Shown here piece after piece: positions 4,076 to 41,969 of a stretch of 45,814 nt of DNA; positions within the stretch are counted from its first letter, which is position 1; every line of letters begins with the position of its first letter. The stretch is taken from the sequence record MG050172, one strand, 5' to 3'. A program made the position numbers and the translations under genes. The notes under the pieces were generated by a model. That model saw only the letters and a list, made by a program, of their open reading frames with translations. It did no database searches and was not told the origin of the DNA. This stretch comes from Escherichia phage DTL.

Positions 4076-5659
4076 TCACCCCAGCAGTCGCGGATTAATG
4101 TAAACTTTATCACCAATCAGGCACGTATAGTTCTTCTCATCGAGCATCGGCAGTAAGTGATCTTTAATCTTCGTCATTACTCCAGCCTGAGCCTCGAACG
4201 GCTTAACCTTGCGAGCCGCTTCATACAATGAACGAATGCCAACAACACCCTTACCGTTTTTGCCTTGCTTGATCAGAATGTCAATCAACTTATTCATCTC
4301 GGCATTGTCACCAGCGTGACCTGCGGCATTAGCAGATGAAAGGTAAGTTTTGCTTAGTTCATTAAACATAATTACAGCTTCTTGCATGGTATCCAATTCA
4401 ATTTCCCTGGACTTCTGCGGACTACCACCATTTGGGTTGAACCAGTTACGCACAGTGTGAAGAACCGCCGCAATCCTGATAGCCTGTTTATCGAATTTAC
4501 CCAGGGCGCCGCGCAGCATCGTGTGCGAATATTTTCCGCCGTCAGCAAGGTGCGGCTCCATTTCCTGGCGTGCTTTGTTGAGATATTTCATTGCCGAGTT
4601 GCTAACCGTGAGCTTAACATCTTGTTCGTTCATTATTTCGTGAACCAAGCGGAAATAATCAGCCTTCAGCCCACCATCAATAGGTTCGTAAGTTGAGTCT
4701 CCATTCTCATCAACGAACACGCGCTCGCCAAGAAATGACTTCTCGCGTACAAGCAGAAAACGCTCAGAAACACCGATACCACGCGCACCAGCATTCATGA
4801 TTGCGTTAATCGTCTCATCCTGCGCAATTACAGATATGCAGCCCATAGCAACGAAACTCATATTATTCTCTGAGTTCGCGCGCGCAATAGATACGTTACC
4901 CGCATCCCACGCTTTAAGCACGAGTTCGCTGTTCGTTTTCTTAGAGCCATCACCATAGGTCATGCCTAAAAGTGAGTTAACGCTAGTTGCTTCGTCAGAA
5001 ATTACCGCAAAGTTGCCCTGACGGTTGTTTATTCGCGCAAGACCTTCCGGCGTGGTGTCGGATACGGGGAAAACGATATCGCAAAGTTTCTCGAGCTTTT
5101 CCTCAAGATCCTCCTTCTCCTCAAAAAGAGAGGCCATCTCTGACGGAGATTTTTCCTGCTTAATCTCTTTGGATAATGCAGATAGTTTGGCCATAATCTT
5201 TTTTCGCTCACGTTTTCGCACTTCATTAAGCCGCTCAGTCTCAGCAATCATTGGAGCAATTGAAAGTGAGTTGATTGCTGATTTACCAGTCGATGGCGGC
5301 TGGCTTGTTACAACATAAAGCGAAGTTGGTTGCTGAGTTCCGTGATACTCAACTGTAAATCGTCCTAGCATGGCGGCAGAAATACACCCCAGGAAGTGCA
5401 TGTATGCGGACGACTCCGGAAACTGAACAGAACGAGCGATATTGGATGATAGTTTGCCAACAACATCAATATCATTACCCAATGAGATTACGGGATACTT
5501 GTCATTAGCCGCATCAATCTCGACTGGCGCTTTCCAGAATGATTGAGACTGGCGATATCCATTAGCATTAATAGCGACTCGCAGTGGGGTGAGGTTGTCT
5601 GCTGCAGCAATTGCCATAACCTGTTCAACAGATAGTTTATCTTCGTTGAAATCAAACAT
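4076..5659 (-). CDS. hypothetical protein (527 aa), full-length member of a two-member paralog family
   Basis: Long ORF; N- and C-terminal ~40 and ~80 aa are homologous to the 140-aa product of 8671..9093. Confidence 0.5.
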   Translation of the reverse strand: MFDFNEDKLSVEQVMAIAAADNLTPLRVAINANGYRQSQSFWKAPVEIDAANDKYPVISLGNDIDVVGKLSSNIARSVQFPESSAYMHFLGCISAAMLGRFTVEYHGTQQPTSLYVVTSQPPSTGKSAINSLSIAPMIAETERLNEVRKRERKKIMAKLSALSKEIKQEKSPSEMASLFEEKEDLEEKLEKLCDIVFPVSDTTPEGLARINNRQGNFAVISDEATSVNSLLGMTYGDGSKKTNSELVLKAWDAGNVSIARANSENNMSFVAMGCISVIAQDETINAIMNAGARGIGVSERFLLVREKSFLGERVFVDENGDSTYEPIDGGLKADYFRLVHEIMNEQDVKLTVSNSAMKYLNKARQEMEPHLADGGKYSHTMLRGALGKFDKQAIRIAAVLHTVRNWFNPNGGSPQKSREIELDTMQEAVIMFNELSKTYLSSANAAGHAGDNAEMNKLIDILIKQGKNGKGVVGIRSLYEAARKVKPFEAQAGVMTKIKDHLLPMLDEKNYTCLIGDKVYINPRLLG

Positions 5660-6568: not shown

Positions 6569-7093
6569 TTATCTCCCGTGGTTTTTGTGGAATTTACCAT
6601 TCGCAAACTCAGCTCTAGCAGCAATTGCATCATCTATGTTGTCATAAAAACCAAGATGATATCTTTTCTTTTCGTATCTGGCGTAGGCGGCGAACTTTCC
6701 TGTTCGGCTCATGTAGCAAACACCAGTAACTCCGGTCTTGTTGTCAGACCTTCTTTTGGCGTTCCTTGTGTTTTCTGACCACGTTGCCAGCCTTAGGTTT
6801 GATATGTGGTTGTTTGATTTATCACCATCTATGTGGTCAACAACCATTTCATCTGGAACCTTTTGACCTGTCTCTATCTCGTAGACTATCTTATGAACAC
6901 AGTATAGCTTTGCGTGTATGCCAACTTGATGATACCCACTATTTGAAAGCTTGCATCCGCATGGCTTATTTGCGTGTCTTTTATTCCACCTCTTTAAGTC
7001 CCAATCTATATTGTTAGTGTGAGTGTCGATCGTTCTCTCCTTGAAGTAAGGGACTCCATCAACAAGATAAATATATTTAGAGAAGTCCATCAC
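6569..7093 (-). CDS. HNH homing endonuclease
   Basis: Motif VVDHIDGDKSNNHISNLRLATWSEN plus AP2-like C-terminus. Confidence 0.8.
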   Translation of the reverse strand: MMDFSKYIYLVDGVPYFKERTIDTHTNNIDWDLKRWNKRHANKPCGCKLSNSGYHQVGIHAKLYCVHKIVYEIETGQKVPDEMVVDHIDGDKSNNHISNLRLATWSENTRNAKRRSDNKTGVTGVCYMSRTGKFAAYARYEKKRYHLGFYDNIDDAIAARAEFANGKFHKNHGR

Positions 7094-7329: not shown

Positions 7330-7342
7330 ATTTCAATCCTCA

Positions 7343-7516
7343 AAATGGAATGCAGTGATTACAACCCTCACCACTACAACAGAAATCTTCATCTTCTGAC
7401 TGGAATTGCTTTGCCAGATCAATGTCTAGCTTTCCGCGCACCACAAGGTCTGTGTAATCTTCGTTAAGTCCAATCAGTGCACATTCGTGACGTAACTCAT
7501 CTTTATCAAGCTTCAT
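7343..7516 (-). CDS. small Cys-containing hypothetical protein (57 aa)
   Basis: ORF found by eye with CCSGEGCNHC; first gene downstream of the minus-strand promoter element at 7571..7590. Confidence 0.3.
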
Positions 7517-7739
7517 GTCTTTCTCCTCGCTGTTGATGGGTTAACTATATCCCCACTAACTCATAATGTCTTTAGCAAAAAGTGCCATTCGTTAGATTTA
7601 TGGATTGTTGCAGATATTGCAATGATTCTCATGATTATTGCGTATATAGCAATATTGCTTCAGATGCAATGATTTTTTTGATTGTTGCGAAAAGTGAAAT
7701 GAAGTGGTGAGTGAGTGAATGAAAGAATGATGGACTACC

Positions 7740-8170
7740 ATACAAGTTGATTTTGATTCTGGCTGAGCCATTTTAACGCTTACGCGTAACGCCAGTAGCG
7801 CGATGTAAGCCAACGCCTATCGTTACGCTAGTTACGCGCAGATACGCCATGACTTACACTATAAGTGCTTAATATATATATATATCTTCTTTCTATTATT
7901 ATTATTATTATTAATATTATTGTATGTAAGTCGTGTAACGGGGGTCCCGGCGATATCTATATGTTTTTTCCTATCAGGATGCATTATTTCCATTTTATGT
8001 GAGATTTAGCCATTATGGGGCCACCCAGCCAATTTACCTCGTTACACGAACGACGCGAAACTACATTGAGCTATAGCTGGGCTAGTGTGCCATTTAGCGT
8101 AACGACCCCCGGAAGTTACCAAAAATTACACTTGACTACATGTGTAAGTCGGGATATGATTGATTCAACT
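7740..8170. promoter_or_regulatory. divergent control region A: iteron-like GTTACGC repeats, (AT)n and (ATT)n tracts
   Basis: ~650 bp between divergent gene blocks; TCGTTACGC/TAGTTACGC direct repeats, palindrome TTACGCGTAA, (AT)7 at ~7873 and (ATT)6 at ~7894; homologous to 34400..34860. Confidence 0.5.
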
Positions 8171-8191
8171 TAAACGAGAGGAGTGATAGAG

Positions 8192-8671
8192 ATGAGCGAG
8201 AAGGTAACATTAGGCCAAGTGATTCGTGAGATGGTAAAAGCAGCGCTTAATTCTGAGGATAAGCAGATCAGCGTGACACTCAACAAGATTGAGAGCCTTA
8301 TTGGCGCCGAGGATGGTGGTCTACACAAGCTTAAGAGCTCATACATCTACAATACAACGGCTCGTATGCCTGAGTTGAGAGGCGCGGGGCTGAAGGCAAC
8401 TCACCATTATGATGAGGAAAGGGGTATTAATGAATTTACTGGGAGTGAGATACTTGGGGATAAAAAGCTGGTTATCAAGCTGATTCCTGGAACTGCAAAC
8501 ATTGGAATCAGAAAGAAGACCAACGACGCGATCAAGGATGAGGCAATCACTGAGTTCAAGTCCAGGATTTCTAAGGTGATGCCAGACCTTTCTGAGTATG
8601 AAGGTGAGGCGCTTGCTGCTGCGATGAAGGCCATTAAAGATTACCGTCTAATTATTGAGGAGATTAAGTAA
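8192..8671 (+). CDS. hypothetical protein
   Basis: ATG after RBS GAGGAG; track ORF 8183..8671. Confidence 0.45.
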   Translation: MSEKVTLGQVIREMVKAALNSEDKQISVTLNKIESLIGAEDGGLHKLKSSYIYNTTARMPELRGAGLKATHHYDEERGINEFTGSEILGDKKLVIKLIPGTANIGIRKKTNDAIKDEAITEFKSRISKVMPDLSEYEGEALAAAMKAIKDYRLIIEEIK

Positions 8672-27866: not shown

Positions 27867-28364
27867 TTGGAGACAAAAATGAACTGGAATGAAATTTTCG
27901 AATACAGAGATGGCAAGATCTATTGGAAAGTTAGCCCTGGCAGGAGGGCTAAGGTTGGTTCGGAAGCTGGATCAAATCAAATAAAAGGGTATAGATTTGT
28001 GAAATTTCACGGAGTTTTATATATGACACACATGGTTATTTGGGAGATGCATAACTGTGAAATACCGCATGGAATGGAGGTTGACCATTTAAATCACATT
28101 AGGGACGATAACAGGATAGAGAATTTAAGAGTTGTTACAAAGTCAATTAATCAGAGGAATGCATCTAAAAGAATTGATAATAAAAGCGGTTTTACAGGCG
28201 TTTCTTGGTATCCCAAATATTCAAAGTGGAATGCTTACGCGACAGTAAATTCCAAGAGGTTTAATCTTGGTTACTTTGAATCAAAGCAAGATGCCTGTGT
28301 GGCTGTTAAAAAATTTAGGTCCATAAATTATTTTCATAAAAACCATGGAGTTGATTTATGTTAA
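27867..28364 (+). CDS. HNH homing endonuclease
   Basis: Motif HMVIWEMHNCEIPHGMEVDHLNHIRDDNRIENLR; inserted between L-like and K-like tail genes. Confidence 0.8.
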   Translation: METKMNWNEIFEYRDGKIYWKVSPGRRAKVGSEAGSNQIKGYRFVKFHGVLYMTHMVIWEMHNCEIPHGMEVDHLNHIRDDNRIENLRVVTKSINQRNASKRIDNKSGFTGVSWYPKYSKWNAYATVNSKRFNLGYFESKQDACVAVKKFRSINYFHKNHGVDLC

Positions 28365-29116
28365 CAAAAAGATGCAAATTAGAAATCTTCCAGCACGCAA
28401 AAGAAGTTTACCCGCAAGAATGCTGTGGTGTTGTCACGCAGAAGGGTCGGGCGCAGAAGTACCACAGAATCACCAACGCCAGCAAAGACCCTGAAAATGA
28501 GTTTATCCTTGATTCAAGTGAGTATGCAGATGCTCTCCTTGAGTTGGCTCACAATGAATCTATTGTTTACGTAGTCCACTCTCACACGGGTGATGGTGCT
28601 ACAACAAGGCCTAGCCCGGCGGATATCTGTAGCTGCAATGAGTGCGAGATTCCTTATGTTATCGTAAGTATCCCAGAGGGAGATATGCGTATTCTTGAAC
28701 CATCAACCATGCCGCTGATTGGTCGCCCGTGGGGGTTGGGTAGCTTTGATTGCTGGGAGCTGGTTATGTCGTTTCACAAGAAATACGGAGTCAAACTGAG
28801 TGACTACCGAGTTAATTACCCGTGGTGGGAGAAGCGGTACAATGAAAATATCTATGACGACAACTGGATTAATGAAGGATTTGAGCTGGTAAAAACTTCA
28901 GATATTCCGATTGGCTCAATGATTATGATGCAGGTGCAAAGTGATGTGACAAACCACGCTGGAATCTACATTGGCAATAACAGATTCATTCACCATCTAT
29001 ATGGTAAAATGAGTTCTGTTGATATCTACTCCAATTACTGGCGCGAGCGCACTGTGCGAATCGTTCGCCATAAGGATTTACCAGAGGATGTAATTTATGA
29101 CCCAGAAACTGATTGA
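28358..29116 (+). CDS. tail assembly protein (lambda K-like; JAB/MPN plus NlpC/P60-like)
   Basis: JAMM-like HSHTGDGATTRPSPAD and Cys/His C-terminal half. Confidence 0.7.
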   Translation: MLTKRCKLEIFQHAKEVYPQECCGVVTQKGRAQKYHRITNASKDPENEFILDSSEYADALLELAHNESIVYVVHSHTGDGATTRPSPADICSCNECEIPYVIVSIPEGDMRILEPSTMPLIGRPWGLGSFDCWELVMSFHKKYGVKLSDYRVNYPWWEKRYNENIYDDNWINEGFELVKTSDIPIGSMIMMQVQSDVTNHAGIYIGNNRFIHHLYGKMSSVDIYSNYWRERTVRIVRHKDLPEDVIYDPETD

Positions 29117-34133: not shown

Positions 34134-34366
34134 TCCTTAGAACCATGGTCTTTAATGGAGCCACCGTAACCGCCACCAGTGGCCTTAATTCCATCGTAGC
34201 GCACATCAACTTCGCCAGCTGGAACAACCACACCATTTTTCCATTTAGCCACGCATACGCCGCTTGCTTGCGTTGCACACCAACCATCAGGACGTGGACC
34301 TGATGAACAACCAACTGTCATTATTACTGCTGCTGAGATGATTACTGATTTGATGAAGTTAGTCAC
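34124..34366 (-). CDS. putative Cor-like superinfection-exclusion lipoprotein
   Basis: 80 aa, lipobox TVGCSS, GTG start, placed just beyond the J-like gene. Confidence 0.45.
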
Positions 34367-34399
34367 TTTGTACTCCTTAGTTAGTATGTTTCGTTTCGA

Positions 34400-34860
34400 T
34401 GGGATAACTATACAACCGTCAGTGAGGAATGTCTTTAGCTATTCGTGCTATTGTATACACGTAACCGATGTAACTGCGTGTATACCAGTGCCATCCGCGA
34501 GAAATCGTATACGCCTAGTTACGCCTAGTTACGCATTGGTTACACTAAAATATCTATATATATCAACCTTTTACTATTATTATTATTATTATATATATTA
34601 CTGTGTATATCATGTAACTACCTCTATAGGGTGTTGCGGTTATAAATTTCTAATATGTACATTTATACAGTATCTATCAACCAGCACACCAACGCACCCT
34701 CCGCGAGAAGCGGTATACACGATATACACGCTGGTTACGCTGAGCTATGGCTGGCTTGATATGCCAAAAAACGTAACTAGTGCCAACGCCTACACGTAAT
34801 TACAAAGATTCACGCGTAAGTTTGAATCAACGATTGGAGAAACCAATTGGACCCAAGCCA
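34400..34860. promoter_or_regulatory. divergent control region B: iteron-like TAGTTACGC repeats, (TA)n and (ATT)n tracts
   Basis: CCTAGTTACG x2 at ~34513..34537, (ATT)n at ~34574..34592, GAGCTATGGCTGGCT block; homologous to 7740..8170. Confidence 0.5.
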
Positions 34861-34913
34861 TGAACTCTCATATAGTTAACCCATCGAAAGCGAACAACCA
34901 GAGAGATAAAGAA

Positions 34914-35108
34914 ATGACCTACTACATTATCAAAGAGAAAAACAATGCGCTGTTCGGCGACTGCTACTTTGGCGGCCACTCTGGATACACCACAGATAAG
35001 AACGAGGCCGACAGATTCGAGACTAAAGAAGAAGCCCGAGATGTTCTGACCGGGTACTTCACTAAAGAAGATTTGAAATCTGTTAAGGTAGTTAAGGTTA
35101 AAATTTAA
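34914..35108 (+). CDS. hypothetical protein
   Basis: ATG 34914 preferred over track start 34860; preceded by CATCGAAAGCGAAC leader variant. Confidence 0.35.
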   Translation: MTYYIIKEKNNALFGDCYFGGHSGYTTDKNEADRFETKEEARDVLTGYFTKEDLKSVKVVKVKI

Positions 35109-35109
35109 A

Positions 35110-35583
35110 ATGGAATACAAACTCTACTTCAATTACGACAATGGAAAGTTGATATGGAAAGTCAAAAAGAAATCAGGAAATCCGGGCTCAGAGGCTGGTA
35201 GTGTGATGAGGGATGGTTACATCATGGTTGGTTTAAATAGAAAACTAATTCTTGCTCACAGAATAGTTTGGGAAATGCTTAAAGGCCCGATACCTGAAGG
35301 TATGGAGATTGATCATATTAATCATTGTAGGTCAGACAATAGGATAGAAAACTTAAGGATGGTGAGTAAGCCGATAAATCAAAGAAATAGATCGAGATCA
35401 AAAAATAACACAAGCGTATTCACGGGAGTTTGTTGGAGTAAGTCAGCTTCAAAGTTGGTCTCATCAATGAAAGTTAACGGGAAAAAAATTCATCTTGGAT
35501 CGTTCGATGAAATACAAGATGCAATAGCTGCAAGAAAGTCAGCAAACCAAAAGTATAAATTTCACAAAAATCATGGAGAATAA
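35110..35583 (+). CDS. HNH homing endonuclease
   Basis: Motif HRIVWEMLKGPIPEGMEIDHINHCRSDNRIENLR. Confidence 0.8.
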   Translation: MEYKLYFNYDNGKLIWKVKKKSGNPGSEAGSVMRDGYIMVGLNRKLILAHRIVWEMLKGPIPEGMEIDHINHCRSDNRIENLRMVSKPINQRNRSRSKNNTSVFTGVCWSKSASKLVSSMKVNGKKIHLGSFDEIQDAIAARKSANQKYKFHKNHGE

Positions 35584-40043: not shown

Positions 40044-40967
40044 TTAGCTATTCAATAAATCACTCGCCTTATATATCTTCTTCCTGATGCCGCTCTTGAA
40101 TGAGTATTCATCATTTGGTATTACCACCTCAACGTTCCTGTCATCCGCAACGCAAAGTAATTCCATATCAAGATTGCACGCCACTCTCAACTTGTAGTTT
40201 TTGAGCGCATAAGCAACCATCTCCATATTGTAGCTGGAGTGGCAAACAAGCGCGCAGCGGTTCCCAGTAGCAAGATGAACGCGAACACCATCAATCCAAT
40301 TATCGACAAGATAAGCGTACTCATCACTTTTAAAGGTACCAATAACAGCAACTGACTGACGGGTATAATCTTTTGCAGCATAACTAACAACTCCCTCTTC
40401 ATTTATAAACATTACATTGCACATCTCATCTGACAACCCATCACTATAAGCCATAAAGCACGGTATTGCGTGTATTAGTTCTCCTGATTTTGTCCTGCCA
40501 ACATCAAAACCAAACTCGCTATAGATTCCCTCGTATATACTGAGCGGAGTTGATTCTACTCTTTCCGTCCTTTCCATTATCTCTAAGCACCTTTTGTGGT
40601 CAATCTGAGCGCCCATTTTGTATAGTTTGGTTCTTGATGCTTGCTTGTTTGCTTTAACTATAACCTCAATTGGTGTTAAGTTCAGCCAGTCACCAAGCAA
40701 ATTTACTGAATCGGCGAAGGACGATCCAGTGCACTTCATGACCCATCCTATACCGGAGTCACTTCCGCATTTCGAACAAACTGCCGCGCCATTTCCTTTT
40801 TCACTGCCTATTTCGTCGGTAAATCTGAATCTGTCAGTGCCAAAGCAGTATGGGCATGGTCCGTGCTTCTTACTTAGGTGTCTATCATTCCAACCAAGTT
40901 CCTTTGCATAAAATGATTTCCACAATCCGGCCATCTTAGGTATAACTTCATTCTTATCGTAATTCAT
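40044..40967 (-). CDS. DNA primase (zinc-ribbon plus TOPRIM-like)
   Basis: Zn-binding CPYCFG...CSKCG at N-terminus; acidic TOPRIM-like C-terminal half. Confidence 0.65.
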   Translation of the reverse strand: MNYDKNEVIPKMAGLWKSFYAKELGWNDRHLSKKHGPCPYCFGTDRFRFTDEIGSEKGNGAAVCSKCGSDSGIGWVMKCTGSSFADSVNLLGDWLNLTPIEVIVKANKQASRTKLYKMGAQIDHKRCLEIMERTERVESTPLSIYEGIYSEFGFDVGRTKSGELIHAIPCFMAYSDGLSDEMCNVMFINEEGVVSYAAKDYTRQSVAVIGTFKSDEYAYLVDNWIDGVRVHLATGNRCALVCHSSYNMEMVAYALKNYKLRVACNLDMELLCVADDRNVEVVIPNDEYSFKSGIRKKIYKASDLLNS

Positions 40968-41443
40968 TTGCTTAACCCGTGATTTTCGTGAAAGTTGTAT
41001 TTTCTCTCTGCTTCAATTCTTACTTTATACGCCTGCTCTGGAGTATCGAAGTTCCCAAGGTGTAGCTGCTTGCCGTCAACCTTGATGTGAGCCTTAAATT
41101 TTCCGTGATTTAGCTTTGCCACTCCACAATAACCAGTTGTTGATAAAACGCTAATCTTGCAATTTCTTGAGTTACCTTGATTTGTTGTTACTCTTAGGTT
41201 TTCTATTCTGTTATCTAATTTGTTATGGTTTATATGATCAATGTAGTCGCCATTTTGAAGTTCTCCATTAAACATCTCCCACACAACTCTATGTACATAA
41301 GTCCTAAAGCCATTAACAGACACTTTGTAATAGCCAGATGTAGATAGTGAGTTGCACTCATCGCCAACCTTAACACGTCTTGCAGTGCTAATCTTCCAAT
41401 GCAATTTGCCATCTACATAGTAAAAATAATCATGCCAGTTCAT
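40964..41443 (-). CDS. HNH homing endonuclease
   Basis: Motif HRVVWEMFNGELQNGDYIDHINHNKLDNRIENLR. Confidence 0.8.
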   Translation of the reverse strand: MNWHDYFYYVDGKLHWKISTARRVKVGDECNSLSTSGYYKVSVNGFRTYVHRVVWEMFNGELQNGDYIDHINHNKLDNRIENLRVTTNQGNSRNCKISVLSTTGYCGVAKLNHGKFKAHIKVDGKQLHLGNFDTPEQAYKVRIEAERKYNFHENHGLSK

Positions 41444-41495: not shown

Positions 41496-41969
41496 TTACT
41501 CTTTAGCTTTTCGTGCGGCTTCGTTAGCTGCCTTAATCTTTCGCCATGATCGACACTCTGGCTTGGTGGCCAATTCAGCCTCGGTAACCACGCGAAGCAT
41601 GTGACGCTTCTTGCATCTAAGTGTCAGCGGCTTGCCGTTACCGTCGAATTGCAGGTCTGGGCGGCAGAATGTGGCTCGAAAGCCTTCTCCATTTCGCTTA
41701 TAGTAGTTGTGCGACAGCTGGGCACCGCGTGCAGAAATCATTCCACGCTTAAACCACTCCTCTACAGCCTGTGGAGTTACCTTTAACTGCTTTGCGATAT
41801 TCGCCTTTGTGCCGAAGAAATCAAGAACTATCTCGAGTCTCGCTCGTAGTCCGGATCTTACTTCATCTTTTAAAACGTAGTAACCTGAAGGTCGCTTCCG
41901 TTTCTTCTTGTCTTCAGTGCGGACAGTTCCGTTATTCCCGTTAATGGTTCGCTTGTCAACTGCATTCAT
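41496..41969 (-). CDS. putative HTH DNA-binding protein / transcriptional regulator
   Basis: Basic N-terminus and HTH-like ANIAKQLKVTPQAVEEWFKRG. Confidence 0.4.
   Translation of the reverse strand: MNAVDKRTINGNNGTVRTEDKKKRKRPSGYYVLKDEVRSGLRARLEIVLDFFGTKANIAKQLKVTPQAVEEWFKRGMISARGAQLSHNYYKRNGEGFRATFCRPDLQFDGNGKPLTLRCKKRHMLRVVTEAELATKPECRSWRKIKAANEAARKAKE

Follow-up and report, generated by a model that had tools for sequence, protein, structure and literature searches.

The window analysed here corresponds to the whole genome (45,814 bp) of Escherichia phage DTL (MG050172), a T1-like siphovirus of the Drexlerviridae whose source is a 1,3-propanediol fermentation. Its closest relatives are the phages UALMA_PCEc3 (PCEc3 in the following), BEK2/3, CEB_EC3a, AugustePiccard and Rtp, with 80-93% identity. 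A preliminary description of this DNA had pointed to a divergent noncoding gap with iteron-like repeats, here called gap A, and to a second gap of similar content, gap B. Gap A is indeed noncoding and comprises 675 bp (7517-8191) between oppositely transcribed genes, on its left a leftward one (7340-7516) and on its right a rightward one that starts with the ATG at 8192. To its left extends a leftward block of small genes with a helicase gene at the end, and to its right a rightward block of small genes which is followed by the terminase genes. Gap B (34367-34913) has the leftward gene of a cor-like lipoprotein on its left and the rightward recE/erf/ssb operon on its right.

The first gene to the right of gap B starts with the ATG at 34914 and not at 34860, and its phrog match begins at residue 19. 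The long form of the reading frame 34860-35108 is wrong and gap B therefore ends at 34913. This long form and two further gap-crossing open reading frames (8015-8173 and 34338-34799) were rejected as genes because their frame is not conserved, with single-base indels between the relatives, and because the protein-family match starts only at residue 19. An Rfam scan of the genome yielded one tRNA only (12077-12151) and no match inside gap A or gap B.

Each gap contains a module of short repeats around an AT core, module A at about 7780-8120 and module B at about 34450-34830, which are ~26.7 kb apart (Table 1). The repeat unit is best summarised as WTACRC and occurs in the forms GTTACGC, GATACGC, TATACAC and GTTACAC. 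From left to right both modules have an inverted or palindromic pair of units, four direct units at a spacing of 9-12 bp, a bipartite AT core which these adjoin and, right next to it, two inverted units; then follow a variable stretch of ~80 bp, units in both orientations together with a GAGCTATRGCTGG box and finally a rightward promoter. The right-hand element shared by modules A and B is the GAGCTATAGCTGG box. The AT core is built to the same plan in both modules, namely an (AT)n tract, a pyrimidine-rich spacer of 9-12 nt and an (ATT)n tract.

All elements listed for gap A in the preliminary description were found where it had placed them. It had further claimed that the same ingredients recur in gap B in identical order. 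This is borne out, with the end of the gap corrected as above: the counterparts are, in order, two copies of TAGTTACGCC, (AT)4 at 34556-34563, (ATT)5 at 34576-34590 and GAGCTATGGCTGGCTT at 34742-34757. In module A the left iteron array abuts the AT core and is kept in six relatives, TGTAAGTCGTGTAAC to the right of the core mirrors GACTTACAC to the left of it (inverted repeats I6 and I2), and the GAGCTATAGCTGGGCT box includes the palindrome AGCTATAGCT. In module B the core sequence TATCAACCTTTTA fits the IHF consensus, for which the whole genome contains only four such matches.

Table 1. Features in and around the two intergenic gaps and candidate proteins of phage DTL
Feature	Position	Strand	Sequence and remarks
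Candidate initiator-helicase (putative)	4076..5659	-	527 residues, DUF3987, Walker A SQPPSTGKS
Leftward promoter, gap A	7544..7588	-	19-nt ATGGCACTTTTTGCTAAAG 7570-7588, AAGACA 7567-7572, 17-nt spacer, TATAGT 7544-7549, TAACCCATC leader
A-only insert, probable pac region	about 7588..7700 (~150 bp)		TGCAAT/ATTGCA and GATTGTTGC repeats; palindrome 7634-7673; families D1, I1
Palindromic iteron pair, A	7781-7794		TTACGCGTAACGCC; TTACGCGTAA (7781-7790) perfect palindrome, then CGCC; WTACRC sites 7780+, 7784-; conserved in relatives
Left iteron array, A	7820..7859	+	Four direct WTACRC units: 7823, 7832, 7842, 7854; spacing 9-12 bp
Direct repeats, A	7820-7828; 7829-7837		TCGTTACGC; TAGTTACGC
AT core, A	7868..7920		(AT)7 7872-7885, CTTCTTTCT spacer, (ATT)6 7895-7912
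Inverted iteron units, A	7925..7940	-	TGTAAGTCGTGTAAC, two units right of AT core; scored WTACRC site 7933-
Right-hand block, A	8039..8119		Iteron CGTTACACG 8042+; GAGCTATAGCTGGGCT box 8069-8084; iteron GCGTAACGA 8097-; inverted repeats I4, I5; conserved block
Rightward sigma-70-like promoter, gap A	8132..8160	+	TTGACT-17-TATGAT, 10/12 consensus matches; RBS and ATG 8192 downstream
Truncated helicase paralogue, HOS46_gp16	8671..9093	+	N-terminal ~45 residues (56% identity) and C-terminal winged helix (63% identity)
Leftward promoter, gap B	34407..34451	-	ATAGCACGAATAGCTAAAG 34433-34451, AAGACA-17-TATAGT (34407-34435); type as in leftward promoter of gap A
Inverted iteron pair, B	34453-34485		GTATACACG / CGTGTATAC; inverted repeat I6; invariant in Braunvirinae
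Box, B	34491-34503		CCATCCGCGAGAA; direct-repeat copy at 34697-34709 (D3); invariant in Braunvirinae
Left iteron array, B	34506..34546	+	Four direct units: 34509, 34519, 34529, 34540; spacing 10-11 bp
AT core, B	34547..34602		(AT)4 34556-34563, TATCAACCTTTTA 34561-34573, (ATT)5 34576-34590, (AT)4; invariant in seven relatives
Inverted iteron units, B	34603..34619	-	GTGTATATCATGTAACT, two units right of AT core; scored site 34603-; I2, D5
Right-hand block, B	34697..34821		Box CCCTCCGCGAGAAG; three direct units 34715, 34724, 34735; GAGCTATGGCTGGCTT 34742-34757
Last units of right-hand block, B	within 34697..34821		CGTAACTAG, ACACGTAAT, CACGCGTAAG
Rightward promoter, gap B	34848..34876	+	TGGACC-17-TATAGT, then TAACCCATC leader; inverted repeat I1
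Primase	40044..40967	-	Zn ribbon of P4-alpha/T7 type; P4 alpha match E = 1e-11
Cro-like HTH protein	41496..41969	-	phrog_2856; alternative candidate iteron binder

The AT cores stand out by their duplex stability. The least stable 50-bp window of the genome is the core of module A (7870-7919, -43.1 kcal/mol, 92% AT) and the second least stable is the core of module B (34550-34599, -45.1 kcal/mol), while the third weakest window has -52.8 kcal/mol. Compared to the genome mean of -67.5 kcal/mol (sd 4.4) both cores are at z about 5. With this low duplex stability the AT cores would be easily melted unwinding elements. The arrangement proposed in the preliminary description for A, in which iterons adjoin a tract that should melt readily, is present in both modules and is also found family-wide.

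The four promoters at the edges of the gaps were called from scans for -35/-10 consensus elements and are consensus matches only. In gap A as well as in gap B such elements face both ways. The sequence TATAGTTAACCCATC is common to both leftward promoters and the rightward promoter of gap B, and the iteron GTGTAAGTC (8142-8150) sits in the spacer of the rightward promoter of gap A. Most WTACRC units are, however, 100-300 bp away from the edge promoters. Of the suggested operator arrays for bidirectional promoters, the promoters are found at the gap edges only, where the sigma-70-like matches are located. The AT cores are unsuited as UP elements because they lie 200-300 bp from these promoters. 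Putative promoters within the AT cores (CTTACA-18-AATAAT and similar) were discounted as too weak and too register-dependent.

Gap A contains in addition an insert with TGCAAT/ATTGCA repeats, which has no counterpart in gap B. The ends of the GenBank records of T1 and Rtp both align to ~7653 and therewith fall within this insert; the T1 record has a terminal redundancy annotated at 1-2800. In the SU57 paper pac is placed in the corresponding untranslated region and possible multiple pac sites are mentioned. From these sequence comparisons the A-only insert is the probable pac region of gap A. The packaging-related sites considered in the preliminary description thus probably belong to another element, which lies to the left of the region that it covered.

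Similarity and conservation of the two modules

A pairwise alignment bears out the paralogy of A and B. The local alignment score is 90, whereas dinucleotide shuffles score 22.4 +/- 2.7 with a maximum of 33. Against the reverse complement of B the score is only 25, thus the similarity is colinear and in equal orientation. When the AT tracts are excluded, the left halves of A and B still match with z = 9.1 and the right halves with z = 3.7, in contrast to the crossed halves (z <= 1.7). The similarity is therefore far above chance and not due to the AT tracts alone. WTACRC sites number 11 in each module of ~390 bp, against an expectation of 0.75 (Poisson P about 5e-10), and the two modules are the densest 400-bp windows for this motif in the genome, the third densest having 5 sites.

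The pair of modules is found at the equivalent two positions in T1 (Tunavirinae), in Rtp and PCEc3 (Braunvirinae), in phSE-2 (Tlsvirus) and in Klebsiella phage K50, and B-type modules are also present in a Rogunavirus and in HCF1. In all modules of the family which we examined the AT core pattern CTATATAATA ... ATTATTATTAT is recognisable. The flanking repeats differ by lineage: one group has TTACRC types, and a second group has repeats of the GTTCAC, GCGCAAC and AACAA types. In phSE-2 module B lies downstream of a terminator and no leftward gene flanks it, so that this module is not between divergent genes. A search of 72,556 plasmids for relatives of module A found none.

Among the relatives with 80-93% overall identity the iteron arrays and the cores are near-invariant, whereas the ~80-bp spacer varies freely. 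We had expected that the (AT)n and (ATT)n tracts could be length-variable, contingency-like loci. This was rejected, as the lengths are fixed among close relatives: of six relatives, the five closest have practically the same tract lengths in the A core, and Rtp has a B-type core.

Within a genome the two modules resemble each other more than their orthologues do between subfamilies. The A-B scores are 90 for DTL, 66 for T1, 70 for PCEc3, 141 for Rtp, 72 for phSE-2 and 137 for K50, thus 66-141, and the orthologous modules compared across subfamilies score below this, at 22-46. Further, when the ~120-bp cores are compared, Rtp A reaches 79-81% identity with the B-type cores, and its identity with the A cores of DTL and PCEc3 is lower (68-71%). 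The resemblance within genomes and the B-like core of Rtp A suggest therefore that the copies exchange sequence or co-evolve. Judged from these comparisons, the two modules evolve in concert, as would be expected for sites which are read by one machine.

Candidate proteins and modules in distant phages

The DUF3987 helicase is encoded in the leftward block that starts at gap A, ~1.9 kb from module A, whereas module B is ~16 kb away from the helicase gene around the circular map. Its structure was predicted with a pLDDT of 89.5, and in the PDB it matches best the subunits of MCM2-7 and of archaeal MCM (E down to 6e-6). For the last ~75 residues the prediction gives the helix-strand-helix-helix-strand-strand order of a winged helix. 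The protein is thus predicted to have an MCM-like AAA+ fold with a C-terminal winged helix. The winged helix has no pronounced basic character, and in MCM proteins such domains frequently bind proteins instead of DNA. The second gene to the right of gap A encodes a truncated paralogue of the helicase (8671..9093) without the ATPase core, which is a possible regulator.

Another candidate for binding the iterons is the Cro-like HTH protein. It is conserved across the family, and in the distant contig L022 its homologue precedes the primase and the helicase within one operon. Among six genomes we found no covariation of the iteron type (GTTACRC versus GTTCAC/AACAA) with the C-terminal domain of the helicase or with the recognition helix of the HTH protein. 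With the helicases of phSE-2 and K50, phages with other iterons, the DTL helicase shares 71-73% identity, versus 58% with the T1 helicase.

Three distant contigs (L021, L022 and L023) encode a DUF3987 helicase that is 34-38% identical to that of DTL, and each of them has an analogous module with different iterons. In L021 the module is directly upstream of the helicase operon and has runs of G5-6 on one side and of C5-6 on the other side of a ATCTATATAAAAC...TATATATAG core. In L022 the operon of HTH, primase and helicase genes is followed by a terminator and then by the module, in which CCCCAG/CTGGGG and CCGCAG boxes surround CCCTATATATAACTATTATTATATATATC; boxes of the TCCGCAG type are also found in T1, K50 and L022. 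In L023 a (TAA)9 tract and CTTACM units are located upstream of the helicase gene, and the contig breaks within the tract. Module architecture and the flavour of the AT core follow the helicase-primase set while the iterons change, and this is what is expected of origins and their initiators.

A possible replication origin and its alternatives

We suggest as the most likely function that modules A and B would be replication origins of the iteron/AT-core type, or an origin and an auxiliary site, placed between early promoters, and we put the probability of this reading, which leans on the analogy to known origins, at about one half. Of the three roles considered in the preliminary description (origin, operators, packaging) it gains most support. 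The geometry known from SaPI origins, with four plus-strand units to the left, the core and an inverted pair to the right, is present in A and in B. In addition to this geometry the weakest duplexes of the genome, the concerted evolution, the predicted MCM-like helicase and the modules beside distant helicase genes argue for an origin. Against it count the winged helix without pronounced basic character, the iteron types that do not covary with either candidate binder in six genomes, and the helicase gene of DTL, which is not adjacent to a module.

GC and AT skew follow the transcription direction only and are uninformative on origins. Neither DnaA boxes (TTWTNCACA) nor GATC sites occur in gaps A and B, with 1 DnaA box and 69 GATC sites in the entire genome; therefore an origin of the oriC type, and this type alone, is excluded. 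An origin of the lambda type was likewise rejected, the modules being intergenic and noncoding and the crossing open reading frames not being conserved in frame.

Replication initiation might proceed as follows. A phage DNA-binding protein would occupy the short WTACRC iterons. The MCM-like DUF3987 helicase would be the best candidate, with its C-terminal winged helix as the binding domain, and the Cro-like HTH protein the alternative. With four units in helical phase to the left of the AT core and inverted units to its right, two assemblies would come to face each other over the core, and the (AT)n/(ATT)n core, as the weakest duplex of the genome, would then melt. At the melted core the helicase would load itself and the Zn-ribbon primase would start synthesis. 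Opening may be aided by transcription that starts at the early promoters on either side, and iterons in or beside promoters may couple replication with promoter control. The truncated paralogue of the helicase, whose gene is close to gap A, could compete for the iterons as a regulator.

Only as a tentative and somewhat doubtful extension do we propose for the T1-like phages (Drexlerviridae) a pair of concertedly evolving origins roughly opposite on the genome (or an origin with a crr-like partner) which would be fired by the MCM-like self-loading DUF3987 helicase and regulated by the truncated paralogue, a separate protein made of the non-catalytic ends of the helicase (N-terminal helices and winged helix). 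The conserved (ATT)n/TATATA core, which distant phages with other iterons also have, would be the landing or priming site of helicase and primase.

The main rival of an origin is transcription control, and both roles may coexist, as iteron origins commonly double as operators. The WTACRC units would then be operators or enhancers at which a phage regulator, perhaps the Cro-like HTH protein (41496-41969), acts to switch the strong early promoters at the edges on or off, and the AT core would serve to bend the DNA or to insulate the divergent promoters from each other. An operator role is plausible because the modules lie in promoter regions and one unit is within a promoter spacer: promoter-like sites are present at all four module edges, and the iteron at 8142-8150 in the spacer of the rightward promoter of gap A suits an operator equally well. 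The palindromic forms TTACGCGTAA and CACGCGTAAG resemble dimer operators, the HTH protein is conserved family-wide, the B core matches the IHF consensus, and if two early regions were controlled jointly, this too would account for the concerted evolution. However, most units and the AT core are 200-300 bp from the supposed target promoters. Moreover, the left half of module B in phSE-2 faces a terminator and no promoter, and the module of L022 is downstream of the helicase gene, past a terminator. Nor would an operator array be expected to show the strict conservation of (ATT)n/TATATA among phages which have nothing but the helicase and primase genes in common. Transcription control in place of replication initiation is in our view rather unlikely.

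It is also conceivable that the modules are elements of recombination or DNA architecture, that is, linkers or IHF/H-NS/Fis sites at mosaic boundaries, or sites for a recombination-dependent replication without a dedicated initiator. Mosaic breakpoints do fall at the module edges, where matches end at ~7790 or begin at ~34432-34456, module B is directly upstream of the recE/erf/ssb operon, and the Rtp core indicates sequence exchange (or co-evolution) between A and B. Such elements would leave unexplained, however, why the short repeats are phased and oriented and why distant phages retain the architecture while the repeat sequence changes, and we hold this explanation to be improbable. Finally, it is highly improbable that the shared module is itself a packaging signal with two copies of terminase recognition sites: although region A is at the conventional genome end of T1-like phages, the GenBank records of CEB_EC3a and ZL19 begin at 7774-7778 of the window at the palindromic iteron, and the SU57 paper raises multiple pac sites, the shared module is not pac because the ends of T1 and Rtp fall into the TGCAAT/ATTGCA block, which is exclusive to A and entirely missing from B, and a single pac site starts the packaging of T1 with its ~2.8 kb terminal redundancy.

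T1 belongs to the classical T phages. Phages related to it are notorious contaminants of fermentations and laboratories as well as candidates for phage therapy. If modules A and B are origins, the long-open question of the origin in T1-like phages becomes directly testable. They would offer a minimal replicon for engineering and precise anti-phage targets in industrial strains. They would further provide a case from Gram-negative lytic phages in which an MCM-like self-loading helicase fires the origin, in an unusual two-copy arrangement with concerted evolution. In the SU57 paper (2020) no origin was identified. The same is true for the TLS paper (2024), in which iteron-like repeats are stated to be absent from the TLS genome and no lambda-like iterons are reported. 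The modules are not discussed in the DTL paper or in the 2026 paper on T1-like phages; an earlier description in the papers on T1 (2004) or Rtp (2006) is possible.

Comparison with known replication systems

The origin of phage lambda and those of iteron plasmids (F, R6K, pPS10) combine direct repeats with an AT-rich unwinding element, inverted half-sites double as operators, and flanking transcription aids the opening. The lambda iterons, however, are ~19 bp long and lie within the O gene, and plasmid iterons have 17-22 bp, whereas the DTL units are of 6-7 bp, intergenic and duplicated. Phage SPP1 resembles DTL in having a pair of distant origins, oriL and oriR, with common boxes beside an AT-rich region and a single initiator. 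It differs in that the initiator G38P acts with the DnaB-type helicase G40P and a loader and that oriL is located inside a gene.

Dispersed paralogous AT-rich repeat regions are also known as the baculovirus hrs, which are described as both enhancers of early promoters and origins (PMC4535591). Should the DTL modules serve both roles, the hrs would provide a useful model. They belong, however, to eukaryotic viruses and are made up of ~64-bp units with 24-bp palindromes in many copies, and the proteins are unrelated.

In phage P4 (NC_001609) ori and crr share the octamer TGTTCACC in both orientations, and ori has three units at a spacing of 10-11 bp. The octamer is read by the alpha protein, which combines in one chain a primase, a D5-type helicase and a C-terminal origin-binding domain. 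As in P4, DTL has with A and B two cis regions with one common iteron, and the Zn ribbon of its primase is homologous to that of P4 alpha (E = 1e-11). Repeats containing GTTCAC are found in some Drexlerviridae (Tlsvirus, K50 and HCF1). In contrast to P4, the DTL iteron is WTACRC and not TGTTCACC, primase and helicase are separate genes in DTL, and crr of P4, a 120-bp tandem duplication, has no copy of the AT region of ori. We also considered whether the DTL helicase is the split-off helicase part of P4 alpha. This was rejected: the alpha helicase is of the D5 type (D5_N, DUF5906, Pox_D5) and has no similarity to DUF3987. With alpha only the primase Zn ribbon is shared. As the two helicases are unrelated, the DTL modules are outside the P4 family.

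In the origins of SaPIs (Staphylococcus aureus pathogenicity islands) 6-12 iterons of 5-6 nt are arranged around a central AT-rich region, with at least 2 on each side and in opposite directions, and SaPI Rep is a self-loading helicase-initiator composed of an N-terminal domain, an AAA+ ATPase and a C-terminal winged helix that reads the iterons, the primase gene being separate (PMC9371898). The DTL modules are alike with their 11 units, the inverted units flanking the core and the separate primase, and the DTL helicase is predicted to have the same order of domains as SaPI Rep. The module of L022, like the SaPI origin, is directly downstream of the helicase gene. On the other hand, hosts and elements are unrelated, and DTL has two modules per genome neither of which adjoins the helicase gene. 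The DTL helicase belongs to DUF3987 and is MCM-like by its predicted fold, and no sequence homology to the solved Rep structures is detectable. By analogy we infer that the DTL modules may work like the SaPI and P4 systems without belonging to the P4 family.

A promoter-like element repeated across the window

An element of 19-21 nt, ATAGCACnnnTTGCTAAAG, occurs in about 15 copies across the window, and a scan allowing at most two mismatches returns 22 matches in the window versus 8.3 ± 2.9 expected. Nearly all clear copies are oriented with transcription. The element is followed, 19 nt further on, by a -10-like hexamer and then by a conserved leader, catcgaaacgaaac; a -35 hexamer at the proper spacing is absent. 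The element is the "TLS 21-base repeat", the function of which is described as an open question in the TLS paper. Of the 19 specified positions in the marbox consensus of MarA/SoxS/Rob, AYnGCACnnWnnRYYAAAY, ATAGCACnnnTTGCTAAAG matches 18. This fit suggests that the sites are activator-dependent promoters, with a putative binding site overlapping the -35 region.

Coordinates of the features (positions in the window unless a contig is named)
Feature	Position	Strand	Remark
ATAGCACnnnTTGCTAAAG copies	1722, 9192, 9907, 10723, 11173, 22506, 27810, 36547, 39980, 41982, 44958		
ATAGCACnnnTTGCTAAAG copies	6149, 7570, 34433	-	
HNH_3 endonuclease gene	6569-7093	-	
HNH_3 endonuclease gene	35110-35583	+	
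HNH_3 endonuclease gene	40964-41443	-	
Natural "mini-helicase" gene	8671-9093	+	DUF3987 helicase ends fused, ATPase core absent
tRNA gene	12077-12151	+	Rfam score 55.5 bits
Distant-phage module	L021 9230-9620		
Distant-phage module	L022 7600-7950		
Distant-phage module	L023 1-200		

Probable pac region and features of single modules

The two non-coding gaps that hold the paralogous modules, A and B, differ in some features. Only A has the block 7588-7700, in which a palindrome (7634-7673) is flanked by TGCAAT/ATTGCA and GATTGTTGC repeats. The T1 record and the Rtp record both have their ends at a point that aligns with about position 7653, inside this block, and this makes 7588-7700 the probable pac region in DTL. 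For CEB_EC3a and ZL19 the GenBank record begins instead at the palindromic iteron at 7774-7778, perhaps because this start was adopted by convention or because an end was mapped there. As to host labels, "Pseudomonas phage PsgS01F" (PP134917.1) and "Campylobacter phage A16a" (MG065636.1) are T1-like coliphage genomes, and both labels look doubtful; PsgS01F and the E. coli phage UALMA_PCEc3 are both 44,679 bp long with identical percent identity to the query.

The IHF consensus WATCAANNNNTTR has only four matches in the genome. One of them, TATCAACCTTTTA, lies in the AT core of B (34561-34573) and is unchanged in seven relatives; the core of A contains no match to this consensus.

Neighbouring genes and the mini-helicase

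Two of the three HNH_3 genes lie near the modules; the third separates the primase gene from the HTH gene, a position at which Rtp lacks such a gene. All three are likely homing insertions. The gene that borders B on the right truly starts at the ATG at 34914, not 34860. Longer annotated forms in relatives (rtp46, 28260-28658 of the Rtp genome, and bas03_0033) reach into the module, which is non-coding, and seem to have been annotated too long. The terminase genes follow downstream of the tRNA gene, as in related phages.

In the mini-helicase, the first ~45 residues of the DUF3987 helicase are joined directly to its last ~78. It has 140 residues in DTL, and its homologues usually have 174 (314 matches).

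Similar modules in distant phages

In L022, a contig of a distant phage, an uncalled Cro-like HTH gene (4811-5068) precedes the primase and helicase genes. In distant phages with a DUF3987 helicase of 34-38% identity, modules consisting of iterons, an AT core and again iterons adjoin the helicase gene. The iterons of these modules are different ones, namely G5-6 runs, CCCCAG and CTTACM.
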